A DNA stretch of 64,000 bases from the NCBI GenBank assembly GCA_045106235.1, contig JBGCEJ010000023.1, positions 444,823-508,822 on the forward strand, written 5' to 3'. This DNA is from Myxococcota bacterium (GTDB lineage: Bacteria > Myxococcota_A > UBA9160 > UBA4427). The position numbers and the translations under genes were made by a program. Below the pieces are notes generated by a model that was given only the letters and a program-made list of their open reading frames with translations, searched no databases and had not been told where the DNA came from. Below are positions 6,708-48,349 of this stretch, one piece after another (the stretch's first letter is position 1; each line of letters begins with the position of its first letter).

Positions 6708-6736
6708 CTCAAGATCGACGCGCCCCTGGCCGATTC
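6708..6736 (+). promoter_or_regulatory. sigma-28-like promoter upstream of divIVA
   Basis: CTCAAG-N15-GCCGATTC. Confidence 0.6.
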
Positions 6737-6895
6737 TCTTGCCGGAGCGAGAGCGTTTTTTGCCCATGCAGATGCGCATTCGTTCCTATGCAGCCCGCGA
6801 CACGCCGCTGAGAGCCCGTTGAGGACTCTTTCTGCTTTCGCGGGTCCGCCGGTCGCGCCGGTCACCAAGGTCACGAAGCGAGGAGAATCAGCCCC

Positions 6896-7489
6896 ATGCG
6901 CATGACACCCCTGGACGTCCAGAGCCATCAGTTCGCCCATCGCCTTCGAGGATATGACCCCGACGAAGTGGATGCTTTCCTGCGAATCGTGTCCGAGGAC
7001 TATGAATCTCTGGTTCGCGAAACCGAGAGCCAGGGCGACCGAATTCGCCGCCTCGAAAGCCGGATCGAAGAACTCTCCGCTCAGGAGAACCTCCTCAAGG
7101 AGACCCTCGTGAGCGCCCAGTCGATGACCGAGGAGCTCCGGGCCAGCGCCCAGCGCGAAGCCGATCTCCGCCTCGCTGAAGTCGAAGTGCGGGCCGAGAA
7201 GATCCTCGATGCCTCCCATCGCCGCGCCGCCCGCCTCGCCCAGGATATCCGTGAAATGCGGGGCCTCCGTACGCGCCTCGGCGAAGCCCTCCGCAGCACA
7301 GCTGAGACCCATATGGCCCTCCTCGAAACCCTCGAAACCGACGCCGAGGACGATCCGCTCGTCCAGGGCCTCGAAGAAGGCACCATCTCGTATCTCCAGA
7401 GCGATCGCCGCCGCGCCGCGGTCGCTGAGCCTGAAACGACCTCTGAATCCGACTCGACTGAGTACTCGGAGGAGTCGACGACGGCCTGA
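6896..7489 (+). CDS. divIVA: DivIVA domain protein
   Basis: MTPLDVQSHQF...RGYDPDEVDAFL N-terminal motif followed by coiled coil; GAGGAG RBS. Confidence 0.9.
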   Translation: MRMTPLDVQSHQFAHRLRGYDPDEVDAFLRIVSEDYESLVRETESQGDRIRRLESRIEELSAQENLLKETLVSAQSMTEELRASAQREADLRLAEVEVRAEKILDASHRRAARLAQDIREMRGLRTRLGEALRSTAETHMALLETLETDAEDDPLVQGLEEGTISYLQSDRRRAAVAEPETTSESDSTEYSEESTTA

Positions 7490-7608
7490 TGCATCCTTAA
7501 GGTTTCAGTTGAGTCTCGCGGCTCCTTTGCGCCCGTCGGGCACCCGTTGGCAGCTCTGCTCCAATGGGATATCAAAGGCGCCGACTGAGACCCTGCAAGG
7601 AACCCAGG

Positions 7609-7935
7609 ATGCCGACCTACGACTACCAGTGCGAGAAATGCGGATTCGAGTTCGAGCGCGAGCAGCGCATCACCGAAGACCCCATCAAAACCTGCCCTGA
7701 GTGCAAAGGCCGAAAGGTCAAAAAACTGCTCTCCGCGCCCAATTTTATTTTGAAGGGCGGCGGCTGGTACGCCGACGGCTACGGCAGCACGGCCAAGAAG
7801 AGCGGCGGGAGCGATTCCTCCTCCGAGTCCTCCTCTTCCTCATCCGACGCCTCATCCTCCTCCTCGAAATCCGCCAAGGGCGATTCAGGCTCGAAGTCCT
7901 CGGGCAAGTCTGAATCCAGTTCGAGCGCGTCCTAG
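7609..7935 (+). CDS. FmdB-family zinc-ribbon protein with Ser-rich tail
   Basis: [12 protein letters not shown]...CPEC...[13 protein letters not shown]. Confidence 0.88.
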
Positions 7936-8021
7936 TTTCCCTGCGCTCGCGCTGACGGGCGAAACAGCCAACTCCACTCGACCTCGGTCGGGGCGAAACG
8001 ACGAGAAAAAGGGCCACCGTA

Positions 8022-8903
8022 ATGACGGAAAACGCAAAGACTGAAAAGATCGAAACCGTCGTCGTGGATGGTTTGGGGCTCGCGAACCAGCTCCGAGACG
8101 AAATGGCCAAGGAAATCGAGGCGCTCACCGCCGCGGGGCATCGCCCCCCTCAGTTGACCGTCGTGCTCGTAGGAGACGACCCCGCAAGCAAGTCCTATAT
8201 CAAGGGAAAACAGCGCGCCTGCGCCCGCATCGGGGCTGACTCGTCGGAGCATATTCTGCCCGAGTCGACGACGCAGGAAGAGCTCCTCGCCCTCCTCGAT
8301 CAGCTAAATAACGACGACGGCGTGGACGGCATCCTGGTTCAACTGCCTCTGCCCAAGCATATTTCTCCGGAAGTGATTGCCGAGGCGATCAACCCCGCCA
8401 AAGACGCAGACGCGCTCCACCCGCTCAATTTCGGCCGTCTCCTCCTCGGGAATGCAGAGCTGATTTCCTGCACGCCTCTCGGTGTGATGGCGGTCCTCGA
8501 ACGGCATAACATCCCAATCTCGGGCAAGCATGCCGTCGTGATTGGTCGAAGCAATATCGTTGGTAAACCCGTTTCAATCCTGCTGCAGCAACAAAATGCA
8601 ACCGTGACGATGTGCCATTCGCGCACGGAAGACCTTGCCGGCGTTTGCCGCAGCGCCGATATCCTGGTCGCCGCAGTCGGCAGCCCCCGCATGGTCAAGG
8701 CCGATTGGATCGCGCCGGGTGCCGCCGTCATGGACGTGGGCGTGACGGAAGTCGACGGAAAACTGGTCGGAGATGTGGATTTCGAGGCGGCGCAGGGCAT
8801 CGCCGGCATCATCACGCCCTCGCGGCGCGGCATCGGCCCAATGACGATCACCATGCTGCTGCGCAACACGCTGCATGCCTACAAGGTCCGCAAGGGCCTG
8901 TGA
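8022..8903 (+). CDS. folD: bifunctional methylene-THF dehydrogenase/cyclohydrolase
   Basis: GILVQLPLP, CTPLG, GRSNIVGKP and GIGPMTI motifs. Confidence 0.95.
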   Translation: MTENAKTEKIETVVVDGLGLANQLRDEMAKEIEALTAAGHRPPQLTVVLVGDDPASKSYIKGKQRACARIGADSSEHILPESTTQEELLALLDQLNNDDGVDGILVQLPLPKHISPEVIAEAINPAKDADALHPLNFGRLLLGNAELISCTPLGVMAVLERHNIPISGKHAVVIGRSNIVGKPVSILLQQQNATVTMCHSRTEDLAGVCRSADILVAAVGSPRMVKADWIAPGAAVMDVGVTEVDGKLVGDVDFEAAQGIAGIITPSRRGIGPMTITMLLRNTLHAYKVRKGL

Positions 8904-10015
8904 GCGACGCCTCCGCCACACCATCCGCAACGAGCGAAGCCCTTCGCACGCCGCTCCACGCAGCCCACTTGCGCCTCGGTGCGCGCATGATGCCCTTCGC
9001 CGGCTTTGATATGCCGGTGCAGTACTCATCGATCCGTGAGGAGCATGAAGCGGTCCGCGAGCGCGCCGGCCTTTTCGACGTGTCCCATATGGGCCAGGTC
9101 CATCTCTCGGGACCCCGCGCGAACGAGGCGGCAGAAGCCCTCGTCACCTGCGAGATCGCATCCCTTCGCGTCGACCGCGCAAGGTACGGACTCATGCTGA
9201 ACGACGAGGCCGGCTGCGTGGATGATGTGATGGTCACCCGCGAGGCCGACGATGCCCTGTTCTTCTGCGTCAACGCATCGAATATCGAGAGGGATGTCGC
9301 TTGGATCCAGGACCGCGTCGGACCCGATGTCCTCGTCGAGGACCGAAGTGCTGAGACGGCACTCCTCGCGCTCCAAGGCCCCGCTGCCTCCGCGATCCTG
9401 AAGAAGCTCGCCTCACCGGGCGCCGAATTGCCGAAGCGATTCCGCGTCTCGCGCCTTTCAATCTCGGGCATCGATGTGCTCGTTTCCGCGACGGGCTACA
9501 CCGGTGCCCCTGGTTTTGAGATCTACCTGCCGGGTACGTACGCAGAAAAGCTCTTCGACCAGCTGCTTGAGATCGGGGCCGACGACGGCATCCTGCCTGC
9601 AGGTCTCGGCGCGCGAGATACGCTGCGCCTCGAAGCCGGACTCGCACTCTACGGCCATGAACTGGACGACACGACAAGTCCGTTCGAGGCGGGCCTTGAC
9701 CGCTTCGTAAAACCCCTCGAGAGCGGCTTCATCGGATCGGAGGTCCTCGGGAAACGGAGCCAAGGAGCCGACGACCGCCTACTCGTCGGCTTCGAAATGA
9801 TCGGCCGCGGTATCGCCCGCGCCGACTACGAGATCCTGTCAGAGGGTCAGGTCGTCGGCCGGGTGACCTCCGGAGCGCCCTCCCCGACCCTCGGAAAGTC
9901 GATCGGGCTTGGCTACGTTCCAAGGCGTCTCGCCGAGGCCGGCCAGCCTCTCCAGATTCGGATTCGAACCAAGGACATCGACGCCCAAATCGTCAAAGTC
10001 CCCTTTTTGAAATGA
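8900..10015 (+). CDS. gcvT: glycine cleavage system aminomethyltransferase T
   Basis: RTPLH, FAGFDMPVQY, GLFDVSHMG and GLGARDTLRLEAG motifs; GTG start overlaps the folD stop. Confidence 0.93.
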   Translation: MSDASATPSATSEALRTPLHAAHLRLGARMMPFAGFDMPVQYSSIREEHEAVRERAGLFDVSHMGQVHLSGPRANEAAEALVTCEIASLRVDRARYGLMLNDEAGCVDDVMVTREADDALFFCVNASNIERDVAWIQDRVGPDVLVEDRSAETALLALQGPAASAILKKLASPGAELPKRFRVSRLSISGIDVLVSATGYTGAPGFEIYLPGTYAEKLFDQLLEIGADDGILPAGLGARDTLRLEAGLALYGHELDDTTSPFEAGLDRFVKPLESGFIGSEVLGKRSQGADDRLLVGFEMIGRGIARADYEILSEGQVVGRVTSGAPSPTLGKSIGLGYVPRRLAEAGQPLQIRIRTKDIDAQIVKVPFLK

Positions 10016-10026
10016 AAGAAGGCCCC

Positions 10027-10428
10027 GTGGCTGATTACGAAATCCCTGAAGACCTCCGCTATACCGCCGAAGACGAATGGATCCGCTCCGAAGGCGAAGA
10101 AGTCGTGATCGGCATCAGTCATTTCGCCCAAGACCAACTCGGAGACATTGTCTTCGTTGAGCTTCCCGAAGTCGGCGCCACCACCGAAGCGGGCACCCCC
10201 TTCGGTACGATCGAGTCGGTCAAAGCCGTCTCGGATCTCTTCGCTCCTCTGACCGGCGAGGTCCTCGGCATCAATGAAGCGCTGGAAGACCAGCCGGAGC
10301 TCGTGAATGAGAATTGCTACGGCGACGGCTGGCTGATCCGCCTGAAGCCGACCAAGCCCGATGAACTCCCGACCCTGCTCGAAAAAGCCGCGTACATCAA
10401 AACGATCGAAGAGCGCGAATCCGACTGA
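10027..10428 (+). CDS. gcvH: glycine cleavage system H protein
   Basis: AQDQLGDIVFVELP and the ESVKAVSD lipoyl-lysine motif. Alternative ATG at 10012. Confidence 0.93.
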   Translation: MADYEIPEDLRYTAEDEWIRSEGEEVVIGISHFAQDQLGDIVFVELPEVGATTEAGTPFGTIESVKAVSDLFAPLTGEVLGINEALEDQPELVNENCYGDGWLIRLKPTKPDELPTLLEKAAYIKTIEERESD

Positions 10429-10440
10429 GCGCGCAGCGCC

Positions 10441-10489
10441 TCTCACCTCCGCCTCTCACCTCCGCTTCTCACATCCGCTTCTCACATCT
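10441..10489. repeat. 13-bp tandem repeat, about 3.8 copies
   Basis: TCTCACCTCCGCC TCTCACCTCCGCT TCTCACATCCGCT TCTCACATCT; the last copy contains the stop codon of the TPR gene. Confidence 0.85.
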
Positions 10490-11588
10490 TGTCGGAGGCG
10501 CGATCCAGTCTCTGGCGAGCAACTTCGGCCCAGCTGCCCTGGGGATCGAGCTTGAGGTAGCGACGCCAATGCTGGGTCGCCCCCAGCATTCGGTCCAGCT
10601 TTTCGTAGAGCAGCGCCAGGTTGATATGCAAATCGGGATAGTGCGGATCGGAGGCCAGCGCGCGGCGGTAATGCGCCAACGCTGAATCATCCTCGCCCGC
10701 CTCCTCCAGCACATTCGCCAGATTGAAATTAGCCTCGACGTGATCGGCCTCGTAGTCGAGACAGGCCTCGAACGCGCGGCGCGCTTCGCCGAGTCGCCCC
10801 TGGTTGTACCGGACGGCGCCGAGATTGCAGTACGCGTCCGCGAAATGCGGATCAAGTTCAAGCGCGCGCTCGTATGCCTCCGTGGCCTCTTCCGACTTTT
10901 CCGAATCGGCGTCCAGCGCGCAGCCTCGTTCGAACCATGCGATCGCTTCGTCCGCGGGACTCTCTGCATCGAAGGGAGAAATGACCTTCGCCGCATCATG
11001 CTCCGCCAAGGAGGCCACCGGCTGACCGGCCGGATCCGCATCAAACTCAAGAAAGAGCTGACCGCCTGCCTCTTCGAGACGCCCGTCGTGACGAACAACG
11101 ATCCGTCGCGGGTCTTCGTCCCAGAGCCGAAGTGCTGCGGCCGGGTCATCCATTTCCGGGATGCGGTCGCGGACGGTTTCGAGATTGCGGCGGATCCGCT
11201 GAAGCGGGATGCCCTTGTCGAGGAGCGCGACGATGGCCCGCAAAACAACAAGATCGCGAAACGCGAACTGATCGTCGCCTTCCGTAGACCCCGGTGTAGA
11301 TCCCTGTGAAGACGCTGAAGAAGACGCTGAATAAGAAGACGCAGGTGCCTCTAGAGACGTCGCTTCTTCGTCCCCGGCATGCCCAGATTCGGATTGATCG
11401 GATTTCCGCTCGTCTGGTTGCTTGGCCTTCGCGGCAGAAGTCGCGGACGCCGTCTGTGATTCAGATGCGGACGCAGAATCCCCTTCACGCGAAAGCGCTT
11501 CCACCAGCTGCGTTTGCTGCCAGTAGCGCAGTCGGCGCGGCGAAACCTTCAGGATTCGAGCGACATCACCGAGCGAATAATCGGACAC
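10482..11588 (-). CDS. MerR-like HTH plus tetratricopeptide-repeat protein
   Basis: YSLGDVARILKVSPRRLRYW...FAFRDLVVLRAIVALLDKGIPLQRIR, followed by TPRs (AYERALELDPHFADAYCNLG). GTG start inferred. Confidence 0.8.
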   Translation of the reverse strand: MSDYSLGDVARILKVSPRRLRYWQQTQLVEALSREGDSASASESQTASATSAAKAKQPDERKSDQSESGHAGDEEATSLEAPASSYSASSSASSQGSTPGSTEGDDQFAFRDLVVLRAIVALLDKGIPLQRIRRNLETVRDRIPEMDDPAAALRLWDEDPRRIVVRHDGRLEEAGGQLFLEFDADPAGQPVASLAEHDAAKVISPFDAESPADEAIAWFERGCALDADSEKSEEATEAYERALELDPHFADAYCNLGAVRYNQGRLGEARRAFEACLDYEADHVEANFNLANVLEEAGEDDSALAHYRRALASDPHYPDLHINLALLYEKLDRMLGATQHWRRYLKLDPQGSWAEVARQRLDRASDKM

Positions 11589-11741
11589 GTCGCAAAGATG
11601 CCACGTTGCCGCGCCGGAGGGAACCATCTTTGACGTTTCAACCGGCGCATCGGAGATCGTCTTCAATCCGTCACGCCGCAAACACGGACAGGGCTGAAGC
11701 TTCGGATGCCCCCGGCACCGCCGAGCGTGTCATTGCGCGCC

Positions 11742-11750
11742 TGCTAAAGT
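11742..11750 (+). promoter_or_regulatory. extended -10 element for tRNA-Sec
   Basis: TG-C-TAAAGT ending 7 nt before the tRNA 5' end. Confidence 0.4.
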
Positions 11751-11757
11751 CTGCGAT

Positions 11758-11856
11758 GGCGAGGTTCCCGCGGCTGGTGCCCGGCCTCGACTTCAAATCG
11801 AGTGTGGATTGCGTCGCCGCGATCCAGGCGGGTTCGATTCCCGTCCCTCGCCGCCA
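11758..11856 (+). tRNA. selC: tRNA-Sec (anticodon UCA)
   Basis: CTCGA-CTTCAAA-TCGAG anticodon arm, 4-nt TGGT D-loop, 9-bp variable arm, GTTCGATTC T-loop, G discriminator and encoded CCA. Confidence 0.9.
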
Positions 11857-11908
11857 TGCCCTCGGCTCCGGGCGTTCAGGCAGCGCCGGGCAAGAAGACA
11901 CGCCCCGT

Positions 11909-14704: not shown

Positions 14705-14724
14705 CGGAATGAGTGCCGCTCGTA

Positions 14725-15087: not shown

Positions 15088-15091
15088 GGTC

Positions 15092-15433: not shown

Positions 15434-15456
15434 GAAAGTTCTCCTTAAAATATGTC

Positions 15457-15472: not shown

Positions 15473-15537
15473 AGCAGCGAATCGCCCCTCAACCGGAGGA
15501 CGGTCCACCCCCAGATCATACCGCGAGCGAGCCGGAC

Positions 15538-17347: not shown

Positions 17348-17995
17348 CTAGAGGTCGCCTAGGACGAAGGTGCGGAAGAAGTAGTCGTCGGTTGAGTTGA
17401 CGAAGCCTGTGTCGTCATCGTCTTCAGAGCCCGTGCCATCGGCGAAGGGGTTGCCCGAAACGCCCAGGAGATTGGCGATCGGGTCGACGTCCGTGCTCGT
17501 AGCGCGACTGATGAACTCAACGACGATCGCGTACTCCTCGCCCATCGCAACGTCGCGGCTTTCGATGTCATCGCCGACATCGAACTCAGCAAATTCCGCC
17601 TCTCCGAAGGTGGGAAGCGTCGAGGTGTCGACGTCAATCGGCGTGATAATCGAACTCGATTCGTCGGAATCGGGAACGTCCATCGCGTCGAGGGGCCGAA
17701 CCGTGACGCGAACCGTTCCGTCATCATCTGAAGCGCCGTCGATCAAGACGATCCAGAACTCCTCGAACAGGCCCGACTCTTCTTCGATCGTGAAGGTCTG
17801 CGCAACGAGAAGATTCGCCTCGTTCAGCGGCCGAAGGACGCTCGCGGCGATATCAAAGTCGAATTCCGCATCCGCGCGGAGAACTCGGCCTTCCGGACTC
17901 CCTCCGCAGCCGAGCGCGAGGAGACCCACGAGGATCAAAAGACTGAGCTGCGTCGCAAGCGACGGGAGCCACTTAATCTGAGCATTCGGAAACAT
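17348..17995 (-). CDS. acidic lipoprotein of unknown function
   Basis: Hydrophobic signal ending in the LALGC lipobox; GGAGG RBS; very Asp/Glu-rich mature domain. Confidence 0.7.
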   Translation of the reverse strand: MFPNAQIKWLPSLATQLSLLILVGLLALGCGGSPEGRVLRADAEFDFDIAASVLRPLNEANLLVAQTFTIEEESGLFEEFWIVLIDGASDDDGTVRVTVRPLDAMDVPDSDESSSIITPIDVDTSTLPTFGEAEFAEFDVGDDIESRDVAMGEEYAIVVEFISRATSTDVDPIANLLGVSGNPFADGTGSEDDDDTGFVNSTDDYFFRTFVLGDL

Positions 17996-18030
17996 CACAC
18001 CCTCCAGTTCGAGACCGAACCTTTCCGTTT

Positions 18031-18059
18031 CCATCGGAAAATCAAGGCGATAGCTTGAG
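18031..18059 (-). promoter_or_regulatory. sigma-28-like promoter upstream of the lipoprotein gene
   Basis: Minus strand CTCAAG-N15-TCCGATGG. Confidence 0.6.
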
Positions 18060-18330
18060 TCGATGCGTGCGAAATGCACCCCTTGGCACCATACTCCTCG
18101 ACACTCCGCTTAATCCAATATTTTCAGTACTTTAGAGCTCTCAATCAAAGCAATGCATGAGGCCTTGACCCTTTTTCTGGCGCTCACCTGCCCTGCCCAG
18201 CCCTCGAATCAAGCCGGCTGCCCTCAATTCTGGCGACCTCTACGCTATCGCTTCCTCAAGTATCTGCGGCGCTGTCCCCCCTCACCAGCCCACCTTGCCC
18301 TCCTCCCCAAAGACCGAAGGATCCGAATCC

Positions 18331-29657: not shown

Positions 29658-29750
29658 GCTCAGCGGAGGCACGAGCGCGATTTGATCGAGACTCGATCCA
29701 TACCGGATCCAGCCCGGAGCCGTCCCGGAGGCATCTCGGGTGATCCGTCA

Positions 29751-29778
29751 CTCAAGTTGCCTAGGCGGAGACCGAATT
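29751..29778 (+). promoter_or_regulatory. sigma-28-like promoter upstream of the TraF-like gene
   Basis: CTCAAG-N14-ACCGAATT. Confidence 0.55.
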
Positions 29779-29823: not shown

Positions 29824-31422
29824 ATGACGACCCGCGCGCTCTCGCCCCGACCTCAATCGACACGCCCCACCGCACCCCCGAAACACGGACTCTTGTCTCG
29901 GGTATTCCCCCTCGCGATGGCCACGGTCTTCCTCGGCCACGCCGTCCCAGAACGCGTTCATGCCGAGGAATGGAGCTTTATCGGCGCGCGCTACCAGGGC
30001 ATGGGCGGCGCAGGTGTGGCACTCGTCGATGATGAGCACGCGTCCTATTGGAACCCGGGCGCCCTCGCCTTCGGCAAGACCTATGGCGGCAGCCTCACAA
30101 CGGGCGCCCAGGTCGCGGCCGAAGGCACAATCCTTCAGGACATCGACCGGGTTGCCAATTTCCTCGATGACCTCGGCGACGGCGAGTTTGATCAGCTCGT
30201 TGATGATCTCGAAGCGGGCAACCCCATCGATCCGGATCAGCTTGCCACCGCCATTAACTTGGCCACAGTCGAGCTCCCCGCACTAGCGGGCAAAGGCGAA
30301 GGCGTCATTGGATCCGTGAATGCCGCGCTACTCCTGCGCAAAGACCGAATCGCGATCTCCGGAATCGGCAACGGGTTCTTCGCCGCGGATCCGGTCTTCG
30401 ACAGCGAGAACCTCTCCGTTTCAAGTCTGACCGGAGATGCGGCGGTCGACCAACTGATCGCCCCCGGTAGCGCGATGGACCGATATGCCCCAGGCGAAGC
30501 ACCGGATGTGGTCGCCGAAATCGAAGCGCTCTTCGTGAGCGTCGGCTCCACTGCGCCGAACCTCCAAGCCGAAGAACTCGTCTTCCAAGCGGAACAGGCC
30601 GGCGTCAATGTCCGCAGTGGCGCCGTCGCCAGCGGCCTCATCGATCTGATCAATGCCACGGTCACCACCGCCACCGGTAATTTCGCGGACAACGGCTCTG
30701 GCGCTTTCGTCCGAGGCCTCGCTGTCGAAGAAGTCGGCTTCGCTTACGCGCATCCCTTCCTGAAGGATCGCATCGGCATCGGCGGCAACCTCAAGTACAT
30801 GGTCGGCACGACCTTCAATAAATTCGTGCGCTACGACGATGTCGAAAGTGGCAGCGACCTGCTCGATGAAATCGGAAGCAGCCGTCGCCGAGAAACCACG
30901 CATACGGCATCCCTCGATCTCGGTTTGCTCGCCAAGCCCTTCGAGTGGCTCCGCTTCGGACTCACCGCGCGCAATATCACCAGCCCTGAGTTCGATCTTG
31001 CCCGGGACCCGACGCGCCCCGGCGGCCGAAGCACGCTCACCCTCGACCCTCAAGTTCGTGCGGGCGCGGCACTTTGGGTTCTGCCCAACTGGACGATCGC
31101 CTTCGACGCAGACCTCACGAAAAACGAATCCGCCCTCCTCGACGGCTTTGAGTCTCGCATCATCTCCCTCGGCACGGAGTACAAGATCCCGCTCTGGAAG
31201 GTCGCCCTCGCCCTCCGCGGCGGTGCCTACCTGAACACGGAATCCGAGAGCAAAGACGCGATTGCCCTCACCGGAGGTCTTGGACTCAACGTGTTCGGGT
31301 TCAACCTCGACCTCGCCGTCGGCGCATCGCCGAAAACCCAGCAAGTCGAGGCCGCAGGAGACGAAGAGATCCCGTCCCGCGCGAACGTGTCGGCGATGAT
31401 TTCCTACCGAAAGGTCTTCTAA
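29824..31422 (+). CDS. TraF-like outer-membrane beta-barrel protein
   Basis: Signal peptide, GARYQGMGGAGVA...ASYWNPGALA, GLTARNITSPEF, LDPQVRAG and C-terminal Phe. Confidence 0.72.
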   Translation: MTTRALSPRPQSTRPTAPPKHGLLSRVFPLAMATVFLGHAVPERVHAEEWSFIGARYQGMGGAGVALVDDEHASYWNPGALAFGKTYGGSLTTGAQVAAEGTILQDIDRVANFLDDLGDGEFDQLVDDLEAGNPIDPDQLATAINLATVELPALAGKGEGVIGSVNAALLLRKDRIAISGIGNGFFAADPVFDSENLSVSSLTGDAAVDQLIAPGSAMDRYAPGEAPDVVAEIEALFVSVGSTAPNLQAEELVFQAEQAGVNVRSGAVASGLIDLINATVTTATGNFADNGSGAFVRGLAVEEVGFAYAHPFLKDRIGIGGNLKYMVGTTFNKFVRYDDVESGSDLLDEIGSSRRRETTHTASLDLGLLAKPFEWLRFGLTARNITSPEFDLARDPTRPGGRSTLTLDPQVRAGAALWVLPNWTIAFDADLTKNESALLDGFESRIISLGTEYKIPLWKVALALRGGAYLNTESESKDAIALTGGLGLNVFGFNLDLAVGASPKTQQVEAAGDEEIPSRANVSAMISYRKVF

Positions 31423-32503: not shown

Positions 32504-32567
32504 TCTCCGTTGTTCTCCTGTTCTCACGTGTTGTCCTTCTCGCGGACTGTCCTTCGCACGTCTTCTC

Positions 32568-32595
32568 TGATCGGCGAACGGCTCCGGAATTTAAC
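32568..32595 (-). promoter_or_regulatory. possible sigma-28-like promoter upstream of the KshB-like gene
   Basis: Minus strand GTTAAA-N14-GCCGATCA (variant -35). Confidence 0.35.
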
Positions 32596-32628
32596 ACGTA
32601 TACGGCCGAGGGGTTCTTCGCCCGGCTT

Positions 32629-39925: not shown

Positions 39926-39970
39926 AACCCTTCATTTACAAGGGCTTACGACCCAAGTTAGAGCTTTTTT

Positions 39971-39999
39971 CTCAAGCAACGAGAATGCAGGCCCGATGT
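39971..39999 (+). promoter_or_regulatory. sigma-28-like promoter upstream of the PilZ gene
   Basis: CTCAAG-N15-CCCGATGT. Confidence 0.6.
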
Positions 40000-40026
40000 G
40001 AGAAATATCACAGGGGAGCAAACTCG

Positions 40027-40482
40027 ATGGGTCATTGGCGCAAAGCAGAGACGGGATCACAGCGGCACCAGCGCGTGATGGCGCAGGTCCCCGCACGCAT
40101 CTCCACCGTCGATGCTGAGCGGGATCCCGATACGGGTAAACTCTTCTTCCGCAGCACCGAGACCACCACCGCCAACCTCTCCCGCGGCGGAGCTTTTGTG
40201 CATTCCTGGGAGCCGCTCGCCCCGGGCCGTCGGGTCGTCATCAACTTCGAGTTGCCGACCGGAGCCGAGATCCAGGTGGTTGGCCGGGTCGCTTGGACAC
40301 GGCGTGAGCTTCGCCTGGGCGACACGCAAGAGCTTCAGCCGCCCGGCTACGGGGTTGAATTCGTGGGCGGGACTGCGGCCGAAGTCGCTGCGCTGGATAC
40401 CTACCTGAACAGCCCTCACACCTGGAGCCCGCCTGAAACAACGGGCGCCTCTCTGGCTCAGTCGTCGAGCGCATACTCCTGA
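40027..40482 (+). CDS. PilZ domain protein
   Basis: QRHQR...NLSRGGAFV...GRVAW...GYGVEF. Confidence 0.82.
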   Translation: MGHWRKAETGSQRHQRVMAQVPARISTVDAERDPDTGKLFFRSTETTTANLSRGGAFVHSWEPLAPGRRVVINFELPTGAEIQVVGRVAWTRRELRLGDTQELQPPGYGVEFVGGTAAEVAALDTYLNSPHTWSPPETTGASLAQSSSAYS

Positions 40483-41792
40483 ATTTTGCGCCTCAGAGTC
40501 GAGCGATCGATATCGAGTAGCTTGGCCGCTCGCGTCCGATTGCCGTCACAATCCGCAAGCGCCTGTGCAATCGCCCGCTGTTCAATTTCACGGAGCGTCA
40601 TGCCGCGCGGGACGCCCGCTGAACCCACCTCACCGTCCCCGCTCGCCACTGGACGCCGAGCCGAGGTTTCGACTTGTTCGAGCGGGAGATGACGGAGACC
40701 GATCGCGGTCGTTTCGCCCGCGGCGGCCCGCCCACCCTGCACGAGATTTCGCAGCTGGCGGATATTGCCCGGAAGGGGCGCCTGACACAGTGCCTCCATG
40801 GCCTCGGGCGTAAATCCGACTTCGGGCGCCTTATCGAAATGCGTCGCCAACAGCGGAATATCATCTCGGCGCGCAGCCAGCGGCGGTAATTTGATTTCGA
40901 TCCCGCGAAGTCGGTAGTAGAGATCTTCCCGAAGACTCCCTTCATCGATCATGACCTGTGCCGCGCGATTCGTCGCCGCGACAAAGCGTACGTTCACACT
41001 CTCCGGCCGCTCCGCCCCAACGGGCCGAACTTCGCCGTCGTCGATCACGCGCAGAAGTTTGGCCTGAAAACCCAGATCGAGCGTCTCGAGTTCATCGAGA
41101 AAGAGAACGCCCTCGTGTGCTTCCCGAAGCAAGCCCCGCCGATCACGATCAGCTCCCGTAAAAGACCCCCGACGATGTCCGAAGAACTCGCTCTCAAAAA
41201 GATCCGACGGCGACAGCGCGCAGTTATGAGCAACGAAGGGTCCCTTCGAGAGTCCCGAATGGGTATGAATCGCACGAGAGACCAGCTCTTTGCCCGTCCC
41301 CGTATCGCCGGTCACGAGCACATGAACGTCGCTCCGCGCCGCCATCAAGATGCGATGCCGAACTTCCACGATCGCCTTGCTATTGCCAATGAGCTCCGGC
41401 ACATGCGAATCCGCAACGACCGCGCGGGTCCTGGTCAGCAAAGCCCGATCCACGGCTGTGCTCACGCTCGCCGGGGTCGCGGGTTTCGGCAAATAGTTCA
41501 CGGCCCCGAGGCGAACCGCCTCCACGACATCCTCGACGTCTTCGTTGGCAGAGAGCACGATCGCCGGCAGATTCGGCCAGCGCTGCGCGAGATGCGTCAG
41601 GAGTTCGAACCCGTCCATCGACGGCATCCGAAGATCCGTAATCAACAGGTCGAAATGCCCGGTCTCGAGGGCCAGCAGCGCCTCAACGCCGTTCCCCGCA
41701 AGCCGAACCTCGAAGCCCTTCTCCTCCAGAAGAAGCTTCAGATACTCCGCCGAGGCGCGTTCGTCCTCAGCGACGAGAATCGAGTCCGCCAC
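40458..41792 (-). CDS. sigma-54-dependent response regulator (NtrC family)
   Basis: REC (DLRMP), GDTGTGKE, ESEFFGH-GSFTGA, FLDE, DLYYRL and a Fis-type HTH. Confidence 0.92.
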   Translation of the reverse strand: MADSILVAEDERASAEYLKLLLEEKGFEVRLAGNGVEALLALETGHFDLLITDLRMPSMDGFELLTHLAQRWPNLPAIVLSANEDVEDVVEAVRLGAVNYLPKPATPASVSTAVDRALLTRTRAVVADSHVPELIGNSKAIVEVRHRILMAARSDVHVLVTGDTGTGKELVSRAIHTHSGLSKGPFVAHNCALSPSDLFESEFFGHRRGSFTGADRDRRGLLREAHEGVLFLDELETLDLGFQAKLLRVIDDGEVRPVGAERPESVNVRFVAATNRAAQVMIDEGSLREDLYYRLRGIEIKLPPLAARRDDIPLLATHFDKAPEVGFTPEAMEALCQAPLPGNIRQLRNLVQGGRAAAGETTAIGLRHLPLEQVETSARRPVASGDGEVGSAGVPRGMTLREIEQRAIAQALADCDGNRTRAAKLLDIDRSTLRRKIQEYALDD

Positions 41793-41832
41793 TAGACGCC
41801 CTCTCCTATACCGGTCATTTCAGCACCTTCGC

Positions 41833-43194
41833 TCACGCCTGCCGCCCCTCCGCCTCGGGAATCACGGGAATCTCAACACGGACAACCGCACCCTTCTCAG
41901 CTCCCGGCCCGAGCTCAAGAGAGCCCCCCTGATCCTGAACGATGCGTCGCGCCAGGAAGAGTCCAAAGCCGCTGCCCTTTTTTTTAGTCGTGTAACCCGG
42001 CACGAAGATCTGGTCGGCCACCTCCGCCGAGATGCCCTCCCCTTCGTCCGCAATGAGCACAACGCAGCGGCCTTCCTCGCGAAGCACCTTCGCCCGTCCG
42101 ACGCCGCGCCCATCCATCGCCTCGACTGCGTTCCGCATCAGAATCACGAGCAACTCAAGAAAAGGCGTCGCGCTAATCGGAATCACGAGATCCTCCGCGC
42201 CCGGCTCTATTTGAACCTGCCACTCGACCGACGGACTCGCCCGGGTCATTTCGCTTCGCGCTTCTTCAAGTACTTCAACGACTCGTGCCGAAGCTCCCGG
42301 CCCCGCGGACCGCTCGCCAATCTTCTGCTTTGTATCCGATGAGCGACGCTCGGTCGCCTCCGCTGATTCGAAAGAGATACCGGCGACAGGGGCCGCGCTC
42401 GCCTTTTTCTCTGCGCCCGCATCGAGGGCCGCCGCTGGCCCCGTCTCCGAAAGCGTCAACCGCGCCAGTTTCTCAAGTTCATCGATCGTCGTTCGCAGCC
42501 CAGCGAGCGCTGCATTCGAAGATGCGCCGCCCTCCAACTGGGGCTCGATCAAACCCACAAAGCCTCTCAAACTATGAACGGCATTTTTGAGCCCGTGGGC
42601 GAGCCGAGCGACGTTCTCTCCTACCCGCGAAACGACGCGCTCGTCTTCGAGCTCACGTTGCAACGCATCGAGCCGCTCGCCCAACTCGTCGCCCTGCTCT
42701 CGAAGCAAGCGCTCCCCCGTCTCGCGACGGCGGGCCACGCCCCAGCCGAGTCCGCCCATGACCGCGAGCGCACCGGCTTCGAAAAGCCAAAGCTGCCAGC
42801 CAGAGGCGAGCCCAAACAAGGACTGCACGAGGAGCAGCACGCTAATCGACGCGCCAGTCACACCAAAGACACCCAGCGGCGTCATCGACACGCCCGCGAG
42901 GGCGACTTCGATGAAAAAGGCAGCGAGGAAGGGCGACTTGAGTCCCTGCGTGAACGTCGCCAAGGCGCCCCAGCCCAACAGGCCGAGAACGGGAGAAGCC
43001 ATATGCGCGATCGGCGAGACGAATCGCATATCGCGGGCCAGCCAGAGGATCAGTCCGGGGCCAGCAGTCAAGGCGACAATCCAACCCACCAAAGGCCCGG
43101 AGCGCAGCGCAGAACTCAGCCACACGGCAGCAAGACCGCCCAGGCAGAGTGCCAGCGGCCTGGCGAGAAGTGCGCGTTCGACGCTCTTGTTCAT
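41833..43194 (-). CDS. membrane sensor histidine kinase
   Basis: Several TM helices, AHGLKN H-box, NAVEAM, DEGEG and GSGFGL boxes. Confidence 0.88.
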   Translation of the reverse strand: MNKSVERALLARPLALCLGGLAAVWLSSALRSGPLVGWIVALTAGPGLILWLARDMRFVSPIAHMASPVLGLLGWGALATFTQGLKSPFLAAFFIEVALAGVSMTPLGVFGVTGASISVLLLVQSLFGLASGWQLWLFEAGALAVMGGLGWGVARRRETGERLLREQGDELGERLDALQRELEDERVVSRVGENVARLAHGLKNAVHSLRGFVGLIEPQLEGGASSNAALAGLRTTIDELEKLARLTLSETGPAAALDAGAEKKASAAPVAGISFESAEATERRSSDTKQKIGERSAGPGASARVVEVLEEARSEMTRASPSVEWQVQIEPGAEDLVIPISATPFLELLVILMRNAVEAMDGRGVGRAKVLREEGRCVVLIADEGEGISAEVADQIFVPGYTTKKKGSGFGLFLARRIVQDQGGSLELGPGAEKGAVVRVEIPVIPEAEGRQA

Positions 43195-43243
43195 GGTCCC
43201 GGAAACGTCGCCCGGTTCGCCGCGTGGGGCCAGGGTTGGAACG

Positions 43244-43290
43244 AAGAAAAAGCAAGAGCCCCTGCGAAGTCCGCCGGGGCTCTCATTTTT
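43244..43290. terminator. rho-independent terminator after the RRM gene
   Basis: AGAGCCCC...GGGGCTCT stem flanked by A-rich and T-rich runs. Confidence 0.65.
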
Positions 43291-43299
43291 CAGATCGTT

Positions 43300-43614
43300 C
43301 TACCAGCGGCCGCCGCCGCCGCCACCACCATCACGGCCACCGCCGCCACCACCACCGCCGCCGCCACCGCGACGCTTGTCGAGTGCCTCGTTCACGCGGA
43401 GCGCTCGGCCACCGTAGTCACGGCCATCGAGTTCGCCGATGGCTTTGTCGGCATCGGCCCCCTCCATTTCCACAAAGCCGAAGCCGCGTGAGCGGCCCGT
43501 CTCGCGGTCGTTTACGACGGCCGAGGACTGAACGGCGCCATAGGTAGCGAAGAGTTCACGCAGATCCTCATCCGTCGTGCTCCAAGGAAGGTTGCCAACA
43601 TAAATCTTCTTCAC
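43300..43614 (-). CDS. RRM RNA-binding protein with Gly-rich tail
   Basis: IYVGNL (RNP2), RGFGFVEM (RNP1), LRVNEA and a poly-Gly C-terminus. Confidence 0.93.
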   Translation of the reverse strand: MKKIYVGNLPWSTTDEDLRELFATYGAVQSSAVVNDRETGRSRGFGFVEMEGADADKAIGELDGRDYGGRALRVNEALDKRRGGGGGGGGGGGRDGGGGGGGRW

Positions 43615-44011
43615 GAACTCACTCCGTGCCGGGCGGGAAGTTCCGAAGATCCTCTGCCCAGCCTATGGCCCACCGACATCTGTTTTACAACGCACTCGGT
43701 CTCGGTCGAGGTTGCCCCCACGCAAGCCGCCCTCGTCTGTCGAACGAACCCTTCAATTCGGCGCCGACGCCTTCATGGTTCCGACGCGCCTGGGGAACAA
43801 AGCCTGTCTGAACGACTGACGGAAGTCCGAGTGGCTGTTTTCCTTAGGCGACCTAAAAGTAATGAATCGCTGCGGTCTGTGCCAGATCGGAAAAACCACG
43901 TTTACCCTGCGAAACGACCGATATGGGTCTCAGTCAGTCTTTCAACGAAACCAACTCACCCGGCTGAACAGGCTTCCCGCGTGAATCAACGCAGAATTGA
44001 GAACCATCGGG

Positions 44012-44770
44012 TTAGCGATTCGAAGGTCCGCGATTGAAGCGACCCTGTCGCAGAAATGCGTCAACCTGCCGCGCGACCCCCGCAGAGTTCACGATGAAGG
44101 TATGTGTATGGGGCAGCACAAGGTGGTCCTCCATTCCGTCTAGGCGCGTACTCGCCACGCTCACGGTTCCATCATGGGGCGAAGGCAACCAGATTGGACC
44201 GACGGGATTCACCCAGCGGTCCCCTGCAATCACGCCGAACGGAATACGCGGCGCCGAAAGGCTTTGAGGCAAATCCGATTCGCGAGTCCCGAGCTGTCCC
44301 GCGATGGGCCCCAAAACACTTTTGGTGACGCGTAAATCCCGAAGCTCATCCGCGATCTCGCTACCCTGGTTAGGCGGTGCAAGCATGACCGCACGACCGG
44401 CCTCCGGCAGCGACTCGGCTTCGAGCAAAGCGCGCAAGACCAAGCCACCCAGCGAATGCGTCACGAAATGCACGGCTTCGGCGCCCTCCGCACAACGCTT
44501 GACCGCGGGCGCCACCTCCTCAAGGATCTCTTCAATTCCCTGGACACGGGTATCGTAGTTCAAGTTACAAACCGAATACCCCATCGCCCGAAGTCGCCAT
44601 TCCAAGATCAGCATGTTCCGCGCGCTTCGCCCCAGTCCGTGCAAAAGGACAACCGTGTCGCCCCGCTCAACGGGGTTGATCGTCTCAGCGCCCAAGGCGG
44701 CTCTGCCCCCGCCGACCAGCATCGGTATCGAAAGCAAAACCACAAGCAGAGCGATTCGTCCCCACCCCAC
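44012..44770 (-). CDS. secreted alpha/beta hydrolase (lipase/esterase-like)
   Basis: VLLHGL, THSLGG nucleophile elbow, HDGTV and HTHT; signal peptide. Confidence 0.85.
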   Translation of the reverse strand: MGWGRIALLVVLLSIPMLVGGGRAALGAETINPVERGDTVVLLHGLGRSARNMLILEWRLRAMGYSVCNLNYDTRVQGIEEILEEVAPAVKRCAEGAEAVHFVTHSLGGLVLRALLEAESLPEAGRAVMLAPPNQGSEIADELRDLRVTKSVLGPIAGQLGTRESDLPQSLSAPRIPFGVIAGDRWVNPVGPIWLPSPHDGTVSVASTRLDGMEDHLVLPHTHTFIVNSAGVARQVDAFLRQGRFNRGPSNR

Positions 44771-44772
44771 GA

Positions 44773-45402
44773 CTAACGCACGCGTACAGAGAGTGATTCA
44801 TCTTCGGGCCCAATCCTCTCTAAGAAGCCCTCGACGGACGCAGGGATCGGGACATCGCTTTCCGGCGAGTAAGCCGTCGACCAGAATCGGCGCCAGGAGG
44901 GGAAGAACGCGGCAAAGCCCCCTTCGTAGGGATCTTGACCGGGCCAACGCATCTTATTCGCCCCGATCGGGGGCTTATTCAAATCCGTCGCATACCAGTA
45001 CAGCGGCAGCCGGCGGCGAAAGAGCCATCGCCCCTCGACCCGCTCATAACGATCCCAGTACATCATCGTCATGATGATCCACTCGTCGCCCGTCTCGTGT
45101 TCGTTCCGGCTATAGACGAGTCCGCGCGCGGTCTCCTCGTCCTCAAACTCGATGATGTGATTGCCTGTCACATGGGCCGTGCCCGTGAACTGCTCGCGCA
45201 AGGTCTGGTCAAACCAAACCTTGAGCGCGCGACGTCCACGCGCCTCGCGGCTCACGCGAACGTCTTCCGGGAAGAGCCCGCAGAGCGAATCCAGGTCGCG
45301 CATATCAAGCGCGAGGCAGTACTTGGCGACCAGCTGTCGAATCTCATCGAGACTCTCAAGCCGGTCGAGTCTTTCGTCCTGCGTCGCTGGTTGCCAGACC
45401 AC
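44773..45402 (-). CDS. SnoaL/LinA-like NTF2-family protein
   Basis: RLESLDEIRQLVAKYCLALD, HVTGNHII and YWDRYER...WLFRRR. Confidence 0.82.
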   Translation of the reverse strand: MVWQPATQDERLDRLESLDEIRQLVAKYCLALDMRDLDSLCGLFPEDVRVSREARGRRALKVWFDQTLREQFTGTAHVTGNHIIEFEDEETARGLVYSRNEHETGDEWIIMTMMYWDRYERVEGRWLFRRRLPLYWYATDLNKPPIGANKMRWPGQDPYEGGFAAFFPSWRRFWSTAYSPESDVPIPASVEGFLERIGPEDESLSVRVR

Positions 45403-45408
45403 GCCCGA

Positions 45409-48225
45409 CTACGTCTCGTCCGAGGACTTCGCCGCCTTCTTCTTTGCGGCCGTCTTTGTCGCCTTTTTCGATGCCTTTTTCGCGGCGGACTTTTTCGCAG
45501 CGGCCTTCTTCTTGGGCGCCTTCTTGGCGGCGGCTTTCTTCTTCGCGGCTTTTTTCTTGGCCGGCTTCTTCTTCGGCTTCGGTGCCGGGATTTCCTGGAC
45601 CCATTTTCCGTCCTGGAAATGGGCGCGCCAGCCCGTGGTCTTCCCGTCCTTCTCGGACGTCACGTATTGCTCCTTCGTCTTCCGCGCGAAGCGGACCACG
45701 GAGGGACGCCCCTCATGATCCTGCGTCGGCGCATCCGCGAGGTAGCGGTATTTCGGATCCAGCTGATCCTTTACGAAGACGATCTCTTCGACCGTAGGAG
45801 CCCGAGTCTCTCGATGCTTCGGGAACTGGCTCGCTGCCAAGAAGATTCCCGCGGCGCCGTCTCGGAGAAGATAGAAATCATCACATTTCTCGCATTCAAG
45901 ATGCGGCATCGGAATCGGGTCGACCTTCGGCGGCGCGGGCTCACCACTGCGGAGCAGCTTCCGGGTGTTCTTGCATTCTTCTGCGGTGCAGCCGAAATAT
46001 TTGCCGAAGCGACCGGATTTCAGCTCCATATTCTCGCCGCATTTATCACACTCGAGAATGGGGCCGTCGTATCCCTTGATCTGGAACGTCCCCTCCTCGA
46101 CTTCGAACCCGTCGCAGTCGGGATTATTCCCGCAGACATGCAGCTTCCGCTTCTCGTCCACGAGATAACTATCCATCGCGGTCTTGCATTTCGGACAGGG
46201 ACGCTTCTTCAGGAGTCGGCGCGCTTCGCCCTCCCCCTCGTTCTCCGTGTCCGTATCGTCAACCGATTCCGCCTCTTCGCCGGGGATCAAGTTGATGGTG
46301 CTCTTGCATCTTTCCTTCGGCGGAAGCGCGTAGCCCGAACAGCCGAGGAAAACGCCGGTGCTAGCGGTCCGAACCTGCATGGGCCGCTCACATTTAGGAC
46401 ACGCAACATCCGTATCCGTGGGCGAGTTCGAACGCATGCCGTTCTCTTTGTCTTCTGCTGATGTGAGTTTTGCACGGAAGTCGGTGTAGAAATCCCCGAG
46501 GACCTTCTTCCACTTTTTGGAGCCCTCGGCGACTTCATCGAGAGACTCTTCGAGCTCGGCAGTAAAGCCGTAGTCCATCAGGTCGCCGAAATTCTCGACG
46601 AGTCGTTCCGTGACGATCTCGCCCATCTTCTCCGCCTTGAAGCGACGGCCATCAAGGCGCACGTAGCCACGGTCCTGAATCGTCGAAATAATCGAGGCGT
46701 ATGTAGAGGGCCGACCGATGCCGCGTTTTTCGAGTTCCTTAACAAGACTCGCTTCGCCGTAGCGTGCCGGCGGCTTCGTGAAATGCTGCTTCGGGTCGAG
46801 CTTCTCGAGCTTCAGACGATCGCCCACCTGCACATCGGGCAGAGGCACATCCGCATCCCCGCTGCGCCCCGAGGTCGGCTGCGCGGCGGTATGACCGTCG
46901 AACACAAGGATTCGGCCGCGGGTCTTCAACTCAAACTCGCTGGCGGTGACCGTGATATTCGTCGATAGGTACTCAGCGGGATTCATCTGGCAGGCCACGA
47001 ACTGGCGCCAGATCATGTCGTAAAGGCGTTCCTGATCGCGCTCGAGGCCCCCAATCGAACCGGGTTTGACCGCGACATCCGACGGGCGAATCGCCTCATG
47101 CGCTTCCTGCGCGCCTTCTTTACTCGAATAGGACTTCGCCTCTTCGGGCAAATAGCGATCCCCGAAATCAGCCTGAATCACGCCGCGACAGCCTTCAACC
47201 GCCTCTGCGGAGAGATTCGTCGAATCGGTTCGCATGTAGGTGATGTGGCCGGCTTCGTAGAGACGCTGGGCGAGCATCATCGTCTTTTTGACGCTGAAGC
47301 CGAGCCGCGTACTCGCCGCTTGCTGAAGAGTCGACGTGATATAGGGCGCGCCCGGCCGAGTCTTGGTCGGCTTGTCCTTGCGTTCTGTGACATCGTAATC
47401 CGCCGCCTCAAGCAGTCGGAGCGCGACGTTCGTCTGTTCTTCGTTATTCGGACGGAAGTTCTCGCCGTTTCGTTTCGAGACCTCGAGTCGCAGCGCTTCC
47501 TTCGCCTTGGTCGTCGTATCCGCGTGTACTTCCCAGAATTCTTCAGGAATGAAGGCGCGGATTTCACGTTCACGCTCGACAATCAATCGCGTCGCAACAG
47601 ACTGAACGCGTCCCGCAGAGATGCCGCGCGCAACCTTCGCCCAAAGCAGCGGCGACAACATGTATCCAACGACTCGGTCCAGGAAACGCCGGGCCTGCTG
47701 TGCGTTGACGCGTGAGATATCCAGTTCACCTGGATCTTCGAAGGCCTGCTGAATCGCCGTCTTCGTAATTTCGTTGAAGACCACACGCTTGAATCGCTTG
47801 TCGTCGCCGCCGATCACTTCGCGCAGATGCCAGGCGATCGCCTCCCCTTCGCGGTCGAGGTCCGTTGCGAGATAGACCGTATCTGCGTTCTTCGCGAGCT
47901 TCTTGAGCTCGGTGACGACCTTCTCTTTACCTGGCAAAATTTCGTAGTTCGCGTCCCAATCCTTCTCCGGATTGATCCCCATGCGCGCGAAAAGGGCCTT
48001 CTTGGCCTGGGCCTTCTTATGTTTCTCGCGCTTTCCCGGGGGCATCTTGCGGGTTTTCGCCGCAGCGGCCGCCCTCGCCTTCGCATCGACCTTCTTCCCT
48101 GAGCCGCTGACCGGGAGGTCACGGATATGCCCGACACTGGACTTCACCACAAAATCTCGGCCGAGATATTTGTTGATGGTCCGCGCCTTGGCCGGCGATT
48201 CTACGATGACGAGCGACTTCCCCAT
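45409..48225 (-). CDS. topA: DNA topoisomerase I
   Basis: [29 protein letters not shown], catalytic [18 protein letters not shown], zinc ribbons and a Lys/Ala tail. Confidence 0.97.
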
Positions 48226-48320
48226 ACAGCCTCGCTGCTCCTCGGTGGGTGCGGGTGCCCGGTCATGTCAGGGGGGGGCGACATAGACGAGCGATTGACA
48301 ACGGACGCTTGATGAGACCG

Positions 48321-48349
48321 AGTTCGGACGCCGCGCGAATTTTCTTGAG
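48321..48349 (-). promoter_or_regulatory. sigma-28-like promoter upstream of topA
   Basis: Minus strand CTCAAG-N15-TCCGAACT. Confidence 0.55.

Follow-up and report, generated by a model that had tools for sequence, protein, structure and literature searches.

Five copies of a short bipartite motif, CTCAAG followed at a nearly fixed distance by CCGAW, stand before divIVA, topA, a PilZ gene, a TraF_2-like gene and a lipoprotein-like gene in a 64-kb stretch of DNA from an uncultured Myxococcota bacterium (assembly GCA_045106235.1, contig JBGCEJ010000023.1, positions 444,823 to 508,822), here called the window. Are these sequences promoters, which sigma factor reads them, and how many other genes of the genome stand under the same control? 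An earlier note, made from the letters of the window, had taken them for promoters of the sigma-28 family (FliA, SigD, WhiG) and had proposed a global regulator with a non-flagellar regulon. The motif proved to be real, enriched, orientation-specific and conserved across species. As judged from the statistics and comparisons below, the five sites are very probably members of a class of about 150 promoters spread over the genome, which would be read by FliA and would drive a broad 'motile cell' programme.

A bipartite motif in the window and across the genome

The pattern CTCAAG-N13..16-CCGAW occurs exactly five times in the window, at the positions named in the earlier note, versus 0.53 occurrences expected by chance, and 0/100 dinucleotide shuffles reach this number. 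The gaps from CTCAAG to CCGA are 16, 16, 15, 16 and 16 nucleotides (nt) in the order of Table 1; the 14-15 nt before NCCGA given earlier are the same distance, counted to the base before the box. All five sites lie outside likely coding frames and each is oriented toward the following gene, just as described before. The start codons of divIVA, the PilZ gene and topA (ATG 6896, ATG 40027 and ATG 48225) are found 160, 30 and about 97 nt 3' of their sites, respectively, and maf, a yggS-like gene and proC lie upstream of divIVA. In a simple scan no sigma-70-like match was found in 48200-48600 around the topA site, and no sigma-70-like promoter was found beside the divIVA site. A repeat or mobile element as source of the recurrence was rejected because the sites have the two boxes alone in common and their spacers are unrelated. 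The additional 'variant' listed earlier at 32595(-) was dropped as a site and left out of the count because it scores less than 12 bits with the matrix built for this genome (see below), in whose match list it is missing.

The genome-wide counts were made on the 5.82-Mb assembly (63 contigs, 61.6% G+C, 93% complete), in which the window is C23:444823-508822. Genes were mapped with our own simple codon-usage caller and annotated by Pfam; by these calls intergenic DNA makes up 11.7% of the genome. At a gap of 15-16 nt the strict motif was counted 59 times genome-wide, with 42 sites in intergenic regions and 36 facing a start codon no more than 300 nt away; with control gaps the two boxes gave 2/24 at 11-12 nt and 1/27 at 18-19 nt. 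A two-block matrix was grown from the strict sites and built on 229 upstream sites, and its consensus is cTCAAG / gCCGAT(a). In the -35 box c-T-C-A-A-G the T is present in 228, the two A in 216 and 192 and the G in 180 of the 229 sites, and in the -10 box g-C-C-G-A-T/A the corresponding counts are 227 for C, 227 for G and 225 for A. CTCAAG and CCGA are separated by 16 nt in 181 sites, by 15 nt in 39 and by 17 nt in 9.

A genome scan with such a matrix, which had been suggested in the earlier note, gave 176 intergenic and 199 coding matches of at least 16 bits, the coding DNA being 7.6x larger (density ratio 6.7). At a threshold of at least 20 bits, 36 intergenic matches stand against 7 coding ones (density ratio 39), and the coding matches of at least 18 bits number 57 genome-wide. 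In ten dinucleotide shuffles of the intergenic segments 19.9 +/- 5.9 matches reached 16 bits versus 172 observed, therefore about 150 sites lie above background; the shuffled control gave 5.8 matches of at least 18 bits (99 observed) and 1.2 of at least 20 bits (36 observed). Orientation was tested for the 183 matches of at least 16 bits that are not wholly within a gene. Of these, 167 are directed into the gene that follows, 15 face the other way and 1 lacks a gene downstream. The median distance from site to start codon is 67 nt, and the sites of at least 16 bits precede 154 distinct genes. With about 150 predicted promoters the class is large, in keeping with the global regulator proposed in the earlier note. 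The window itself contains five strict sites versus a genome mean of 0.65 per 64 kb (Poisson P = 6e-4); it is not a special island, because several other 64-kb bins also hold 5-6 matrix sites.

For the analysis of conservation the sequence upstream of each orthologue was scanned in up to 30 relatives. Of these genomes 18 belong to the same genus, and the other 12 represent other families of the order. For comparison, 1.5% of random 406-nt windows of this genome reach 16 bits. Of the 16 same-genus divIVA loci, 15 carry the site with 20.7-23.0 bits and the one left over has 65 nt of upstream sequence only; the site is also present with at least 16 bits in 10 of the 12 genomes from other families (G023 and G029 are without the site); in the relatives it is located 26-92 nt upstream of the gene. 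For topA a site is present 75-162 nt upstream in all 16 assessable same-genus loci; its score is never below 15.2 bits and reaches 18.6 bits or more in 15 of them. One further same-genus locus had too little upstream sequence to be assessed, and the single locus returned from outside the genus (G027) has no site (8.4 bits). The site of the PilZ gene reaches at least 19.0 bits in 15 of 16 same-genus loci and 14.3 bits in the remaining one, and nine loci from other families score 14.3-19.9 bits; in both groups the sites are found 11-76 nt upstream of the gene. Before the lipoprotein-like gene the site is found in the same place in 14/14 same-genus relatives (15.6-21.2 bits, 12 of them at least 16), and no homologues of this gene were found outside the genus among the relatives searched. 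For the TraF_2 site one of the six assessable relatives reaches at least 16 bits, four have CTCAAG together with a CCGAC -10 box (12.9-14.2 bits) and one scores 10.0 bits; no homologues of the gene were found in other families of the order. In the aligned relatives the spacer varies, whereas both boxes are retained. This is the signature of a functional bipartite element, and thus four of the five window sites are strongly supported.

Table 1. Predicted promoters and genes of the window (positions counted from its first letter).
Feature	Position	Strand	Details
Predicted sigma-28-type promoter of divIVA	motif 6708-6734, feature 6707..6736	+	CCTCAAG-N16-CCGATTC, 22.8 bits
divIVA, 197 amino acids (aa)	6896..7489	+	PF05103, E = 1.1e-35
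Predicted sigma-28-type promoter of lipoprotein-like gene	motif 18059-18033, feature 18031..18060	-	18.9 bits
Lipoprotein-like gene, 228-aa protein	17348..17995	-	without Pfam family; lipobox-like LLALGC
Predicted sigma-28-type promoter of TraF_2-like gene	motif 29751-29776, feature 29750..29778	+	16.8 bits, weakest of the five
TraF_2-family gene, outer-membrane protein-like	29917..31422	+	PF13729, E = 1.4e-22; alternative start ATG 29824
Rejected 'variant' of the earlier note	32566..32596	-	TTAAAT-N14-CCGAT, <12 bits with the genome's own matrix
Predicted sigma-28-type promoter of PilZ gene	motif 39971-39997, feature 39970..39999	+	19.0 bits
Single-domain PilZ gene, 151 aa	40027..40482	+	PF07238, E = 8.2e-12
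Predicted sigma-28-type promoter of topA	motif 48349-48323, feature 48321..48350	-	18.9 bits
topA, DNA topoisomerase I, 938 aa	45409..48225	-	PF01131, E = 1.6e-120; Toprim and zinc-ribbon domains too
Flagellin gene	55637-56455	+	Flagellin_N and Flagellin_C

Some further features were observed around these sites. A terminator-like hairpin with a T-run, 6736-6762 (+), begins where the divIVA -10 box ends and could block read-through from proC, and sigma-28 transcripts would begin within its stem. As a conserved feature it was rejected, as the T-run is present in 1/16 genus loci (this genome). In two cases, at 17995-18034 of the window and at G000:C40:40967-40977, the sigma-28 box overlaps the start codon set by the open reading frame caller, which suggests that the true starts are probably located further downstream. 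For the lipoprotein-like gene the likely start is ATG 17995, which is preceded by GGAGG; the start called at 18034 overlaps the promoter. The 3' end of the PilZ gene is adjoined in convergent orientation by genes for a sigma-54-dependent response regulator and a histidine kinase (40458-43194, -), and a small RRM_1 gene with a eukaryote-type RNA recognition motif (104 aa) lies at 43300-43614 (-). A 19.8-bit match at 44475-44504 (-) is found within the called gene 44012-44722, whose product is DUF7379-like; possible explanations are a chance coding match, an internal promoter or a gene start further downstream.

FliA as candidate sigma factor

For the sigma-28-family factor postulated in the earlier note one gene was found in the genome. 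The FliA_WhiG model TIGR02479 gives a single match above cut-off (280.1 bits vs 189.6) at C23:366206-366883, about 80 kb from the window on the same contig, and the next best match reaches 114 bits. The encoded FliA has a length of 264 aa, and its closest solved chains are 6pfv/6pfj (232 bits), FliA 6pmi (190 bits), 9wsf and 1rp3. The search names 6pfv/6pfj 'RNA polymerase sigma factor' only; we take them to be Streptomyces WhiG-RsiG complexes. Among 502 related genome loci, the best 80 encode proteins with 80-97% identity to this FliA. Across the phylum 67 of 121 sampled genomes contain a FliA-family match over the cut-off, and within the same order 17 of 18 do. Beside fliA, a copy of the motif precedes a convergent PP2C phosphatase gene in 51 of the 66 related loci with enough sequence.

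For flagellar sigma-28 factors the consensus is given as -35 TAAA and -10 GCCGATAA (Schumacher et al., PMC8325347). The motif described here matches this class, with -35 TAAA/T(C/T)AAG and -10 GCCGATAA boxes at a fixed gap of about 15-16 nt. Most likely the motif would be read by RNA polymerase carrying the single FliA/WhiG-family sigma-28 of this genome. The sequence statistics and the comparative evidence support the sigma-28 reading well, and we regard it as probable; the sigma-28-type promoter of the earlier note thus appears genuine, orientation-specific and conserved, with a consensus that fits FliA.

Several points weigh against this reading. Flagellin genes are textbook sigma-28 targets, and upstream of the five examined here no sense-strand sigma-28 site of at least 14 bits was found. 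Three of them have TGGCA(T/C)/TGGTAC-N5-TTGC sigma-54-type boxes 79-142 nt upstream; the flagellin gene in the window (upstream 55418-55636) has a weak sigma-54-like TGG-N9-TGC 60 nt before its ATG, one other has no box, and RpoN is present in the genome. FlgM was not found in the 93%-complete genome with either PF04316 or TIGR03824. As this protein is short and divergent, it is recorded as not found rather than as absent, and the convergent PP2C phosphatase is therefore a candidate for control of FliA. About 22 other sigma-70-family genes (23 Sigma70_r2 matches in total) are present, any of which could in principle read the motif. In 30 genomes of the phylum, 13 without and 17 with a FliA match, the strict-motif count of the whole genome, coding sequence included, did not separate the two groups; in two genomes without a match the strict motif occurs 39 times vs 12 and 31 times vs 5 for the reversed-pattern control. 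This count is uninformative because coding sequence with CTC-AAG codons dominates it. The TraF_2 site is weak and poorly conserved, and 49/154 predicted targets are without annotation. Furthermore, the gene calls come from a home-made caller and the matrix was trained on upstream regions that were later used for counting; the strict-motif count does not depend on the matrix.

The same observations bear on the question whether a real promoter class is read by a sigma factor other than the FliA homologue, for example a group-3 or extracytoplasmic function (ECF) factor. The flagellin genes without the motif and the motif count that did not follow the presence of FliA across the phylum speak for such a factor, as do the 23 Sigma70_r2 matches, four of which have partial FliA_WhiG scores of 78-114 bits. 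Those four are long RpoD-like open frames of 407-723 aa, and ECF promoters typically have a CGT-type -10 box. In addition, the motAB operon and genes for methyl-accepting chemotaxis proteins (MCPs) carry the motif (see below), and the motif accompanies the fliA locus in 51/66 related genomes. Both boxes and their gap fit the sigma-28 consensus and, base for base, the mapped FliA promoters of Bdellovibrio as reported in PMC3627812. We therefore consider another sigma factor improbable.

Content and order of the predicted regulon

For the functional analysis 105 of the 154 targets were annotated, consisting of the five window genes and the 100 next best by score; the 49 lowest-scoring ones were left out. 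The genome encodes a flagellar set with FlhA, FliG, rod and hook proteins and 5-6 flagellins, and motility genes are among the predicted targets. A 21.7-bit site stands before a 260-aa gene with motA and motB behind it. In 12/16 same-genus relatives this site reaches at least 18.5 bits, and the remaining four have preserved the -10 box only; of the other-family genomes 6/12 show at least 16 bits. Two of nine MCP genes are directly preceded by a site (21.8 and 20.7 bits), and counting operon heads it is three of nine, as the third belongs to an operon headed by a 20.8-bit site. This site heads a run of genes on the same strand (G000:C23:175189-180894) with a response-regulator/DUF4388 gene first (179563-180894) and the MCP gene five genes downstream. 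A site is also found for the FapA gene and for two operons of the flagellar clusters. One of them consists of a response-regulator-like gene, a sigma-54 activator gene, fliL and fliM, and its site is kept in 12/12 same-genus loci returned (15.7-18.7 bits). The other contains unknown genes with a degenerate sigma-54 activator gene last, just upstream of flgB, flgC and fliG.

The other targets extend far beyond the flagellum. Five type IV pilus or secretion-ATPase genes are among the 105, namely pilM, a pilB-like gene (T2SSE and MshEN), two more T2SSE ATPase genes (pilT-like) and a pilin-like N_methyl gene. PilZ genes are strongly enriched, as 10 of the 21 in the genome have a direct site compared to 184 of 4694 genes overall (Fisher P = 1.6e-9). 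Genes related to cyclic di-GMP (c-di-GMP) are represented in the annotated set by 8 PilZ, 2 GGDEF, 1 EAL and 1 HDOD genes, and cytoskeleton and polarity by divIVA and 2 bactofilin genes. About 15 other signalling genes are among the targets, with 3 single-domain response regulator, 3 DUF4388 and 3 histidine kinase genes as well as Ser/Thr kinase, PP2C, 2 FHA, RelA/SpoT and universal stress protein genes. The envelope and protease group comprises a TonB-dependent receptor, S8, M1, M17 and aspartyl peptidases, an SLT transglycosylase, HlyD, DUF11 and SprA-related proteins, and housekeeping functions are represented by topA and the genes for a class II tRNA synthetase, S-adenosylhomocysteine (AdoHcy) hydrolase and NqrA. 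No Pfam family was assigned at the thresholds used to 30 of the 105 targets.

Flagellar or chemotaxis genes are thus a handful of the annotated targets, and most promoters precede genes that are not flagellar. In this respect the term 'non-flagellar' of the earlier note holds, as most members are not flagellar structural genes. It fails for the regulon as a whole, because motAB, the fliL/fliM operon, the FapA gene and 2-3/9 chemoreceptor genes carry the motif, and also for its setting, as the genome encodes a full range of flagellar proteins and one flagellin gene lies in the window. The regulon predicted from these sites is a motility, surface and signalling programme. In it FliA would not be a late, flagellin-specific factor but would drive a broad motile-cell programme of motAB, the regulator/fliL/fliM operon, chemoreceptors, type IV pili, about half of the PilZ genes and GGDEF/EAL/HDOD genes, together with bactofilins, divIVA, proteases, envelope proteins, relA/spoT and topA.

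It could be argued that the class is FliA-dependent but forms an ordinary flagellar and chemotaxis regulon, in which the divIVA and topA sites are incidental weak promoters without physiological weight. The motAB, MCP, FapA and PilZ genes are indeed classic FliA-type targets, the PilZ protein YcgR of E. coli is a FliA target as well, and topA and divIVA may have more promoters that were missed by simple scans. Against this, the divIVA site is the third-strongest of the genome's intergenic list (22.8 bits) and is conserved in the order, 16/16 assessable same-genus loci have the topA site, no more than a handful of the 105 annotated targets are flagellar or chemotaxis genes, and about 150 sites far exceed a late flagellar gene set. 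This explanation has in our view a slim chance of being correct. That the motif is the operator or activator site of a transcription factor instead of a promoter is very unlikely: the two conserved blocks could in principle be half-sites, but they are unlike each other and form neither a direct nor an inverted repeat, their strand is fixed relative to the gene (167 vs 15) and their gap at 15-16 nt, their position at a median of 67 nt before start codons fits a -35/-10 pair, and no sigma-70-like promoter for such a factor to regulate was found at the topA and divIVA sites.

Returning to promoters read by FliA, the surroundings of fliA suggest where the factor may stand in the flagellar hierarchy. 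At its locus (C23:364706-368383) fliA adjoins an upstream sigma-54 activator gene, and TGGCAC-N5-CTGC is located about 115 nt before its ATG. A strict sigma-54 box is found upstream of fliA in 30/80 related loci compared to 5/400 control windows, and no autoregulatory sigma-28 site of at least 16 bits was found before fliA in 80 related loci. A sigma-28 site heads the operon with the sigma-54 activator, fliL and fliM, therefore a sigma-54 tier appears to lie downstream of sigma-28. The arrangement of boxes and genes points to three steps: sigma-54 with an activator would drive fliA, sigma-28 would then drive its regulon including the sigma-54 activator encoded with fliL and fliM, and that activator would finally drive the sigma-54-dependent flagellin genes. 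Transcription would begin a few bases past the CCGAT box, and the programme may mark a motile or dispersal state.

Comparison with known systems and biological meaning

The closest known case is Bdellovibrio bacteriovorus, where 92 of 140 mapped attack-phase promoters have TTAAG-N16-CCGATA and were assigned to FliA (Karunker et al., 2013, PMC3627812). The earlier note had referred to a broad FliA programme in this organism, and the mapped promoters agree with that. Compared with this sequence, cTCAAG-N16(15)-gCCGAT(a) is the same promoter, and the scale is similar with 92/140 mapped promoters there and about 150 predicted sites here. In both, as far as the Bdellovibrio regulon is described in PMC3627812, flagellar and chemotaxis genes are mixed with surface proteins, proteases, regulators and many unknowns, and both genomes have several flagellin genes. 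The phylum differs, as the genome studied here belongs to an uncultured Myxococcota lineage, and the promoters were mapped in Bdellovibrio whereas here they are predicted from sequence. In supplementary file 1 of PMC3627812 the Bdellovibrio DivIVA Bd0464 is listed with 27 reads per kilobase per million (RPKM) in the attack phase and 845 RPKM in the growth phase, and topoisomerase I Bd0964 with 0.9 and 211 RPKM; both are flagged as growth-phase-specific, whereas both genes have conserved sigma-28-type promoters here. Further differences from the Bdellovibrio comparison are the sigma-54-type boxes of the flagellin genes and the 10/21 PilZ genes among the targets.

A link of sigma-28-family factors with type IV pili and c-di-GMP has been described in Actinomycetota. 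According to Schumacher et al. (PMC8325347), the sigma-28-family WhiG of Rubrobacter has flagellar promoter specificity, directs genes of type IV pili and c-di-GMP turnover, and is controlled by the anti-sigma factor RsiG together with c-di-GMP. The regulons predicted for sigma-28-family factors in this phylum contain motility, chemotaxis, type IV pili and c-di-GMP metabolism (preprint 10.64898/2026.01.14.699351). The same functions are linked to the sigma-28-family factor here. However, the regulon of R. radiotolerans WhiG is small, with 12 confirmed promoters of 20 matches (PMC8325347), compared to about 150 predicted here.

With the enterobacterial FliA-FlgM class 3 genes the genome shares the GCCGATAA-type -10 box and, as targets, the motAB operon, chemoreceptor genes and a PilZ gene beside flagellar genes. 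It differs from this canonical system in that FlgM was not found with the two models and the flagellin genes have no sigma-28 sites. The predicted regulon is also roughly ten times larger. In the four-tier scheme of Vibrio, fliA is a sigma-54-dependent gene. Similar to the sigma-54/sigma-28 hierarchy of Vibrio and Pseudomonas, fliA here adjoins a sigma-54 activator gene and lies behind a sigma-54-type box; unlike in the four-tier hierarchy, a sigma-28 site heads an operon that encodes a sigma-54 activator together with fliL and fliM.

A global FliA programme is therefore already known in principle, as it has been shown for Bdellovibrio (PMC3627812). A full-text search with Myxococcota, flagella and FliA found no literature on FliA in this Myxococcota group (the match concerned Peredibacter), and the search with sigma-28/FliA, type IV pili and non-flagellar regulon returned nothing on this lineage. 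New is the broad predicted FliA regulon in an uncultured Myxococcota lineage, for which the sigma-54-type flagellin promoters, the FlgM that was not found and the PilZ, divIVA and topA targets are distinctive. We suggest only tentatively that FliA has been freed from the flagellar checkpoint here and, placed in the middle of a sigma-54 to sigma-28 to sigma-54 cascade, has become the master switch of the whole motile-cell state. If this were true, the motile-cell state would join the flagellar motor, type IV pili, half of the c-di-GMP receptors, polarity by bactofilin and DivIVA, (p)ppGpp metabolism and topoisomerase I, and these bacteria would have a two-phase life cycle like that of Bdellovibrio. 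Sigma-28 control of polarity and DNA supercoiling genes would then be an invention of this lineage, as Bdellovibrio apparently has no such wiring.

For flagellated Myxococcota of a widespread, uncultured group the analysis provides a concrete regulatory map with one sigma factor and about 150 predicted promoters. The motif can also be used as an annotation aid, since start codons can be set right with it, as in the lipoprotein gene and the 260-aa head of the motAB operon, and unknown genes can be flagged as candidates for the motility phase. In addition, the map points to testable couplings of sigma-28 with PilZ/c-di-GMP receptors, type IV pili, bactofilins, DivIVA and topoisomerase I. It would thereby extend the idea of sigma-28 from a late flagellar factor to a lifestyle-wide regulator, for which so far mainly Bdellovibrio and the actinobacterial WhiG have stood.

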